Assembly (NCBI RefSeq): GCF_988243305.1
Contig: NZ_OZ547142.1
Length of the DNA: 1,549 nt
Direction: 5' to 3' (one strand)
From: a plasmid
This document shows positions 525-933 of the stretch, one piece after another. The first letter of the stretch is position 1, and each line of letters opens with the position of its first letter. A model generated the notes under the pieces. The model did no database searches. It saw nothing but the letters and a program-made list of their open reading frames with translations, and had not been told where the DNA came from. A program made the translations under genes and the position numbers.

Positions 525-558
525 CGGGATCACAGACAACATGCGAGAGGTGATCCCG
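525..558. other. Hairpin (9-bp stem, 16-nt loop) abutting the conserved backbone segment
   Basis: CGGGATCAC (525-533) pairs perfectly with GTGATCCCG (550-558). Confidence 0.5.
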
Positions 559-626
559 CTCGCCGCAAGTCGATGACCGAGCGTAGCGAGCGAATCGACG
601 AGGAAGCGGAAGAGAACCGGAAGCCA
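551..626 (+). other. Conserved ColE1-family origin-distal backbone segment (region where pMB1-type plasmids carry primosome assembly sites)
   Basis: TGATCCCGCTCGCCGCAAGTCGATGACCGAGCGTAGCGAGCGAATCGACGAGGAAGCGGAAGAGAACC aligns by eye at about 75% identity to the reverse complement of the pUC/pBR322 stretch ...CTTCCGCTTCCTCGCTCACTGACTCGCTGCGCTCGGTCGTTCGGCTGCGGCGAGCGGTATCAG... That orientation is RNAII-sense. Confidence 0.55.
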
Positions 627-680
627 CATTGAGCACTTACGCACTGATGCGGGGTGTCGGGGTGAAGCCCTGACCAAGTG

Positions 681-727
681 GTAATCGTATCGGCGTGCAT
701 GCGCGGTTATACGATTACACATCCTGT
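681..727 (+). other. Perfect 10-bp inverted repeat followed by a CATCCTG|T motif (IncP/MOBP-type nic consensus YATCCTG|Y); candidate relaxase recognition site
   Basis: GTAATCGTAT (681-690) and ATACGATTAC (709-718) are perfectly complementary, with an 18-nt spacer containing GCATGC. CATCCTGT at 720-727 begins 2 nt after the proximal arm, putting the putative nick (726/727) 8 nt from the repeat. An 8-mer of this kind can occur by chance. Confidence 0.3.
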
Positions 728-839
728 CCCGATTTCTGAGGCGTTTTAACGGTGAACGGACGGCAAAAACACGATGGAGCTGTTGAACGTGAAAACCACG
801 AAATCTGGCAAAAATCACGGCTGGCGAGGCTTGCATAGG

Positions 840-902
840 TGTAAGCCAGTATACACTCCGCTATCGCTACGTGACTGGGTCAGGGCTTCGCCCCGACACC
901 CC
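840..902 (-). other. ColE1/pMB1-type bom (oriT) nic region homolog; predicted nick on the minus strand
   Basis: The + strand GCCAGTATACACTCCGCTATCGCTACGTGACTGGGTCAGGGCTTCGCCCCGACACCCC (845-902) is near-identical to the pBR322 bom segment as I remember it (GCCAGTATACACTCCGCTATCGCTACGTGACTGGGTCATGGCTGCGCCCCGACACCC). The complementary strand carries ACTGG|CTTA, which I recall as the ColE1 nic sequence; this places the nick between the complements of 846 and 845. Confidence 0.6.
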
Positions 903-904
903 CA

Positions 905-933
905 AAGGGCGTTGCGTGCAACGCAACGCCCTT
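905..933. other. Perfect hairpin / 29-bp near-palindrome (13-bp stem, 3-nt loop) at the module junction
   Basis: AAGGGCGTTGCGT (905-917) pairs base-for-base with ACGCAACGCCCTT (921-933), loop GCA 918-920. No U-tract follows on either strand (GCCTAGAATAG on +; TGGGGGTG on -), so it is not a canonical intrinsic terminator. Confidence 0.6.

Follow-up and report, generated by a model that had tools for sequence, protein, structure and literature searches.

The closest described relatives of the arrangement reported here are small plasmids that carry oriTs without a relaxase gene of their own. One of them, pBuzz (MF156267), is a rolling-circle plasmid of 1,982 bp with two inversely oriented oriTs, and its mobilisation by a B/O plasmid has been reported (Moran and Hall 2019, cited in PMC9282650 and PMC11389934). 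Others are pEC156, pKPN2 and pSe-Kan, which are ColE1-type plasmids devoid of mob genes that combine an F-type with an R64-type oriT (PMC4743918, PMC9282650). In pEC156, both the F-type and the R64-type oriT are functional, and an R64-type site of about 93 bp works with R64drd11 (PMC4743918). A survey of E. coli plasmids defines an R64-like and a ColE1-like family of oriTs for plasmids that lack a relaxase, and about 12% of its oriT-bearing plasmids have multiple oriTs (PMC10123127).

In the present study, we describe a plasmid of the same kind as pBuzz and pEC156: it is small, carries no relaxase gene and has at least two recognisable oriTs. We assign a probability of about 0.8 to the reading that its two different oriTs face each other, an I-complex (R64-like) site on the plus strand and a ColE1-type site on the minus strand, and that both would be used in trans by helper plasmids. 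As such, the arrangement is a known kind of hitch-hiking layout. The ColE1/pMB1 bom is the oriT of the MbeA/MobA family of HEN relaxases, and the R64 oriT with its NikA-NikB pair is reportedly known from the work of Furuya and Komano.

Like pBuzz, our plasmid is tiny, cryptic and relaxase-less, and in both cases a relaxase acting in trans has been proposed. It differs from pBuzz in combining an I-complex oriT and a ColE1-type bom, on a replicon of the Col(MG828) type, and in that its mobilisation is predicted from sequence. A pBuzz-like plasmid among our comparison sequences has the same geometry, that is, facing oriTs whose nick regions lie inside and whose outer ends are formed by the same 25-nt arm block, but both of its oriTs are of I-complex type (variants a and b, see below) and its replicon is a rolling-circle one of the ColpVC type. 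With pEC156 and its relatives our plasmid shares the presence of two heterologous oriTs on one small relaxase-less molecule; in those plasmids, however, the partner site is F-type rather than ColE1-type, and there is no tight convergent pair with a common arm block.

The window, by which we mean the whole stretch of 1,549 bp that was analysed, is a complete circular plasmid, equal to whole records such as pO26-S1 and pKL1. A megablast search returned 332 plasmid records covering at least 80% of the window, among them pO26-S1 (NC_011266), a plasmid of strain CE10 (NC_017650) and NC_002145, which we take to be pKL1. The majority of these records are exactly 1,549 bp long and typed as Col(MG828). 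The plasmid is of the Col(MG828)/pKL1 type, with repA as its sole gene. Since the window is cut inside repA (junction 1549/1), tools blind to circularity miss the RepA ORF. Neither a relaxase gene nor mbe/mob ORFs were found by annotation and an ORF check of the whole 1,549 bp, and no match to RNAI or to any other Rfam family was obtained anywhere in the window. The ORFs that run across positions 504-944 were rejected as coding sequences because the variants of the cassette described below differ by indels. MOB-suite typing lists Col(MG828)-type plasmids as mobilizable, with a few family members called non-mobilizable. About 85 nt upstream of repA, at 999-1046, there are two near-identical 23-nt units (TGTCGCATCC[T/A]GGATG...) with nested palindromes, which look like a RepA operator or an iteron region. 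The features of the window are listed in table 1.

Table 1. Features of the 1,549-bp window; a slash within a sequence marks a predicted nick.
Feature	Position	Strand	Sequence and remarks
ColE1-derived flank	547-650	+	GAGGAAGCGGAAGAG at 600-614; colinear with the ColE1 ori-to-bom spacer; aligns with ColE1 and a ColE1-like plasmid
Left arm, distal hairpin block of the I-type oriT	651-679	+	GGGGTGTCGGGGTGAAGCCCTGACCAAGT; own hairpin GTCGGGG and CCCTGAC
Imperfect 19-nt inverted repeat	681-718 (681-699 and 700-718)	+	GTAATCGTATCGGCGTGCA and TGCGCGGTTATACGATTAC; folds as a hairpin; variant a
I-type nick region	719-731	+	ACATCCTG/TCCCG; invariant across native and tiny-plasmid I-type sites
Spacer between the nick sites	732-841		Family-specific DNA
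ColE1-type nic region	842-873	-	CAGTCACGTAGCGATAGCGGAGTGTATACTGG/CTTA on the minus strand; identical to ColE1 (NC_001371) and a ColE1-like mbe plasmid
Right arm, distal hairpin block of the ColE1-type oriT	874-902	-	GGGGTGTCGGGGCGAAGCCCTGACCCAGT; hairpin GTCGGGGC-GAA-GCCCTGAC
Perfect 13-bp hairpin	905-933		AAGGGCGTTGCGT and ACGCAACGCCCTT; abuts the right arm
repA	1132-1549, then 1-59 across the junction		158-aa helix-turn-helix RepA; only annotated gene

Positions 650-735 match large conjugative plasmids. All the matches examined are intergenic and lie immediately upstream of a gene for a 110-aa accessory protein followed by that of a relaxase of about 900 aa, a pair that some records annotate as IncI1-type NikA and NikB; the plasmids are MPF_I and MOBP. 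Alignment with the native sites delimits an I-complex oriT unit composed of the arm block, the 19-nt inverted repeat and ACATCCTGTCCCG. The left arm aligns with the block found immediately upstream of nikA in four native I-complex plasmids, one of which is also identical to the window in TACACATCCTGTCCCG (716-731), and ACATCCTGTCCCG is invariant in the four native sites beside nikA/nikB. Because the aligned unit matches native sites upstream of nikA/nikB, the extra DNA of our plasmid is a second oriT, of a different family from the ColE1-type bom and on the opposite strand. The 19-nt repeat would be the binding site of a NikA-type accessory protein, and we predict the nick between G726 and T727 of the plus strand, 8 nt past the repeat, by analogy with R64 and RP4, where NikB-type relaxases cut at this position.

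The site resembles the R64/I-complex oriTs in its arm hairpin, in a repeat of 17-19 nt, in the 8-nt gap and in the motif ACATCCTG/T, with 88-92% identity to native sites adjacent to nikA/nikB. The nick region, the inverted repeat 8 nt from the predicted nick and the distal small repeat of the I-complex type are all present. It differs from them in that nikA and nikB are missing in cis, there being no adjoining nikA-nikB operon, and in being embedded in ColE1-derived DNA. As repA is the sole gene of the plasmid, the I-type site is an orphan copy and not a native I-complex oriT. Its closest counterpart is found on a plasmid typed as IncI-gamma/K, rather than on the two plasmids with IncI1-type NikA/NikB.

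On the minus strand, the ColE1-type bom consists of the arm hairpin (902-874) followed by the nic region ...GTATACTGG/CTTA (873-842), with a nick that we predict, by analogy with ColE1, between C846 and G845. Positions 842-903 show zero mismatches to a ColE1-like plasmid with genes for Rop, MobC, MbeB and MbeD (60/60 from arm to nic), and the stretch from the arm to the nic motif GGAGTGTATACTGG/CTTA is identical to ColE1 (NC_001371) in 58 of 60 positions. A preliminary description of this DNA had noted a resemblance to the pMB1-type bom near 845-902 and had assigned the right arm to it. The resemblance survives real alignment (842-902, 60/60 against the ColE1-like plasmid), and the right arm does belong to a pMB1/ColE1-type bom.

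The ori-side flank is also shared with ColE1, where the GAGGAAGCGGAAGAG block reads GAGGAAGCGGAAAAG. The distance from this block to nic is 98 nt in both ColE1 and the ColE1-like plasmid versus 231 nt in the window, so that the extra DNA first estimated from intervals of about 95 and 195 nt is real; the 133 extra nucleotides contain the second oriT, ori-proximal to nic. The flank marks the place at which the I-type oriT plus spacer take the position of about 90 nt of ColE1-type sequence. Unlike ColE1/pMB1, however, our plasmid has neither the accompanying mbe/mob genes nor an RNAI/RNAII replicon, its replicon being Col(MG828); what it has in common with the ColE1 type is the identity of the bom and its flank. 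About 100 nt of ColE1 ori-to-bom spacer (547-650) thus lie on a Rep-type replicon, not on an RNAI/RNAII one. The region of ColE1 that matches 547-650 contains a primosome assembly site.

The hairpin at 905-933 is found in most members of the plasmid family, one of them with a copy of partly different sequence followed by a T-run, and it is absent in five members. Its absence from these five led us to reject it as a required oriT element; it is probably a terminator of the minus strand, located outside the oriT.

The two arms were first noticed as a 25-nt inverted duplication (651-675 and 878-902), and this observation held up. A repeat search returned arms at 651-679 and 874-902 that are 29 nt long, 93% complementary and 194 nt apart. 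Direct comparison gave 27/29 complementary positions, with mismatches at T663 and A676, and 24/25 in the 25-nt core. The separated-arm score (+1/-2) was 23, whereas 40 dinucleotide-preserving shuffles reached 13 at most; this score was used instead of a test on the longest exact inverted match, which we discarded because it is confounded by local palindromes. The inverted repeat is therefore real and far above chance. It is also correct that ColE1-type plasmids lack a second inverted copy, ColE1 having a single arm.

The left arm, nevertheless, is not an inverted copy of the bom sequence, as had been proposed. It corresponds to the native distal hairpin block of a heterologous I-complex oriT, a block which in native conjugative plasmids is found directly upstream of nikA/nikB. 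Native sites of both kinds, the ColE1-type bom as well as the I-complex oriT, contain the arm block GGGGTGTCGGGGCGAAGCCCTGACC, and in both families it occupies the end furthest from the nick. We interpret the inverted repeat, on the basis of these alignments, as two heterologous oriTs placed head to head and not as a duplication within the plasmid; the arms are complementary because two homologous arm modules face each other.

Nor is the arrangement a rearrangement peculiar to the window, since it is the standard layout across a family of about 500 records of tiny plasmids. Positions 736-841 were found only in about 512 tiny (1.3-1.9 kb) Col(MG828) plasmids, with 82-100% identity, and at least 80% of window positions 640-910 are present in 328 of 5,426 complete E. 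coli genomes (about 6%). The convergent order arm, I-type nick, ColE1-type nic, arm was conserved in 13 of 15 diverged members sampled. The remaining two have one site each, ColE1-type in one and I-type in the other, and the existence of such single-site members indicates that the two oriTs are separable units.

Some further records deserve mention. A fragment of a ColE1-like Salmonella plasmid (L018, 2500-2935) also contains both kinds of site, the ColE1-type bom and the I-type oriT being divergent here and about 290 bp apart; the arm of its I-type site is degenerate (CCGGGTGTCGGGTGGACCCTGACC). Two records labelled as 'Escherichia phage', OR844749.1 (1,423 bp) and OR844798.1 (1,626 bp), match arm plus hairpin over the full length with 94% identity at two places each, and appear to be members of the tiny-plasmid family filed as phage. 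Contigs of 0.4-2.3 kb containing the tiny plasmid with both oriTs were also found in assemblies labelled as Streptococcus, Flagellimonas, Clostridium, Bradyrhizobium, Micromonospora, Pseudomonas, Rhizobium, Acinetobacter and Halobacillus (eleven contigs and others), some of the short fragments having coverage near 1. Contamination or carry-over, rather than true host range, is the most likely explanation for contigs of this kind in assemblies of foreign genera. In the accessible literature, we found no description of a pair of ColE1-type and I-type oriTs, or of oriTs in general, in pKL1/Col(MG828) plasmids, and the arm sequence was not found printed in the literature searched.

If both sites are functional, NikA/NikB, which would nick at 726/727, and the transfer apparatus would both come from an I-complex conjugative plasmid, while nicking at 846/845 would require a ColE1-type MbeA/MbeC relaxosome together with any conjugative plasmid that mobilises ColE1. 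The strand transferred would depend on the helper, opposite strands being used in the two cases: as each strand has one of the nicks and both nicks point towards the spacer, either strand would be exportable. From either oriT, the spacer (732-841) would be the first DNA to enter the recipient. Each arm hairpin would enter last, serving its own oriT in termination and recircularisation; the 8-bp repeat of the R64 oriT reportedly plays a role in termination. The choice among I-complex helpers would be set by the variable inverted repeat. Function is not assured by similarity, because pKPN2, with its R64-like oriT, was reported not to be mobilised by R64drd11 (PMC4743918).

The I-type inverted repeat occurs in three variants (a, b and c) and one hybrid among the fourteen family members aligned, in which the arm and the nick region are constant. 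All three variants are self-complementary, and each has its own match among the native I-complex plasmids. Variant a, that of the window, matches pEC2_4, with four differences from its closest native counterpart in the loop region; variant b is identical to the site of a Shigella sonnei plasmid; and variant c shares about 92% identity with IncI1-type plasmids. The hybrid (L015) joins a c-type distal arm to a b-type proximal arm, so that the hairpin is broken and the nick-proximal repeat is retained. The cognate NikA proteins diverge mainly in their N-terminal half and are nearly identical in their C-terminal half. This pattern fits an inverted repeat that determines the specificity for the accessory protein, as a cassette of about 40 nt that may have been exchanged between conserved anchors.

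The constancy of the arm raises the question of whether this block has a role of its own, independent of any relaxase, either as the site of a shared host or transfer factor or as a homology anchor for the exchange of the cassettes of about 40 nt. The arm is constant while the inverted repeat and the N-terminal halves of NikA vary, it is common to oriTs with unrelated-looking nic regions, and the boundaries of the cassettes, including the hybrid one, coincide with the arm and the nick region.

The arm block also extends beyond this plasmid family. A scan of species-representative genomes for exact GGTGTCGGGGNNAAGCCCTGACC returned 61 loci, including the tiny-plasmid copies; for the pattern, which has 21 fixed bases, about 0.1 to 1 chance occurrences are expected in the collection scanned. 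In Dickeya, Yersinia, Hafnia, Citrobacter, Erwinia, Rahnella and Morganella, the arm precedes other motifs composed of a repeat and a nick-like sequence, which are thus oriT-like. In Pseudoxanthomonas it precedes a motif ending in TAAGTGCGC, presumably MOBQ-like, and in Rubrivivax it adjoins an ORF weakly similar to MobA/MbpA accessory proteins, with scores below the curated cut-offs. Exact copies of the 23-nt arm core are intergenic in Phycisphaerae, Clostridia/Ruminococcus, Methylobacterium and Elstera, where they lie beside ordinary genes, for example frr, rpsI and a clpB-like gene. At the chromosomal loci, eighteen in number, a second and variable hairpin usually follows the arm, and the arm often lies 3-4 nt after another hairpin, one that ends in CCYTTGG; positions 933-874 of the window, read on the minus strand, have the same hairpin-then-arm arrangement as these distant copies. 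No conjugation genes were seen near the chromosomal copies. At the gathering threshold, Rfam gave no match in 13 distant loci except for an unrelated FMN riboswitch, and permissive thresholds returned only noise. A dense REP-like repeat was rejected, as no further copies (with up to 5 mismatches) were present in about 200 kb of distant contigs.

These data would agree with a 25-nt arm (GGTGTCGGGGCRAAGCCCTGACC core) that is a sequence-conserved hairpin module tied to no single relaxase family (it accompanies I-type, ColE1-type, MOBQ-like and other nick motifs), read by a shared factor or belonging to a self-moving element, and serving in plasmids as a homology anchor for cassette swaps. We regard this idea as tentative and rather doubtful, as the recombination is deduced from few sequences only and the binding factor is hypothetical. 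It is compatible with, and not opposed to, the explanation by two helper-dependent oriTs.

One or both oriTs could instead be non-functional relics of a ColE1-like ancestor, or of a recombinant, that lost its mob genes, kept by inertia. Positions 547-650 and 842-903 are indeed colinear with ColE1-type ori-to-bom DNA despite the Rep-dependent replicon, and, in the E. coli plasmid survey, small oriT-only plasmids are reported to have arisen from mobilizable ones by loss of the relaxase (PMC10123127). Decay, however, is difficult to reconcile with the conservation of the two sites. The 60 nt of the ColE1-type site are nearly invariant, while the adjoining spacer has diverged to 82-90% identity, with 82% as the lowest value. 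On the I-type side, the nick region and the arm are invariant, and the repeat between them was replaced at least twice by self-complementary variants that match helper plasmids. Conserved anchors combined with replaced, yet still self-complementary, repeats point to ongoing selection and not to decay, and we therefore consider relics an unlikely explanation.

The preliminary description had further suggested that the arms act jointly, as the outcome of an inverted duplication or insertion that forms a cruciform, offers the relaxosome a symmetric site or delimits a segment which is invertible or has recombined. Apart from the 27/29 complementarity, there are two observations in line with it. 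When the 276-nt region is folded as a single strand, the minimum-energy structure pairs arm with arm (z = -7.65), and an Escherichia albertii plasmid (L010) has an identical G-to-A substitution in the loop (CAAAG) of its two arms (1145-1169 and 1374-1398). Gene conversion between the arms may account for this substitution, the only sign of concerted arm change among the plasmids examined. When folded separately, each arm forms its own 8-bp hairpin with a GAA loop. Across about 20 plasmids, a T/C polymorphism of the I-type arm has no counterpart in the ColE1-type arm, and the mismatch of A676 with C is a fixed, family-specific difference between I-type and ColE1-type sites. As polymorphisms of one arm are unmatched in the other, arm-to-arm complementarity does not seem to be under selection. 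A synthetic query with the interior flipped was matched in one piece by none of 2,111 matching plasmid records, a figure to be read with the caution that assemblies could miss a low-frequency inversion, and no recombinase or invertase ORF was found in the plasmid. The left arm is contiguous with a complete I-type oriT that is native upstream of nikA, the family includes single-site members, the invertible segment is contradicted by these records, and conjugative nicking between the arms would leave one arm at either end of the strand that is transferred. We therefore consider it very improbable that the arms function jointly. A miniature inverted-repeat transposable element, for example one derived from Tn3, was rejected as well, because the flanks GATGC (646-650) and CAAAG (903-907) differ, and it is further disfavoured by the occurrence of single arms alone in native oriTs.

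The two facing oriTs are the only obvious cargo of this plasmid besides repA, and they would permit it to ride two classes of helper plasmids. The family offers a picture of helper tracking, in which one backbone carries three interchangeable I-complex specificity cassettes. As about 6% of the complete E. coli genomes carry this gene-poor plasmid of 1.5 kb, the value of the present result lies in its annotation and little in discovery. The arm hairpin, common to oriT families and distant chromosomes, is the one thread that may lead somewhere new. If it is indeed a module in its own right, the arm would be read by a host factor, by a coupling protein or in a common step of single-strand DNA processing.
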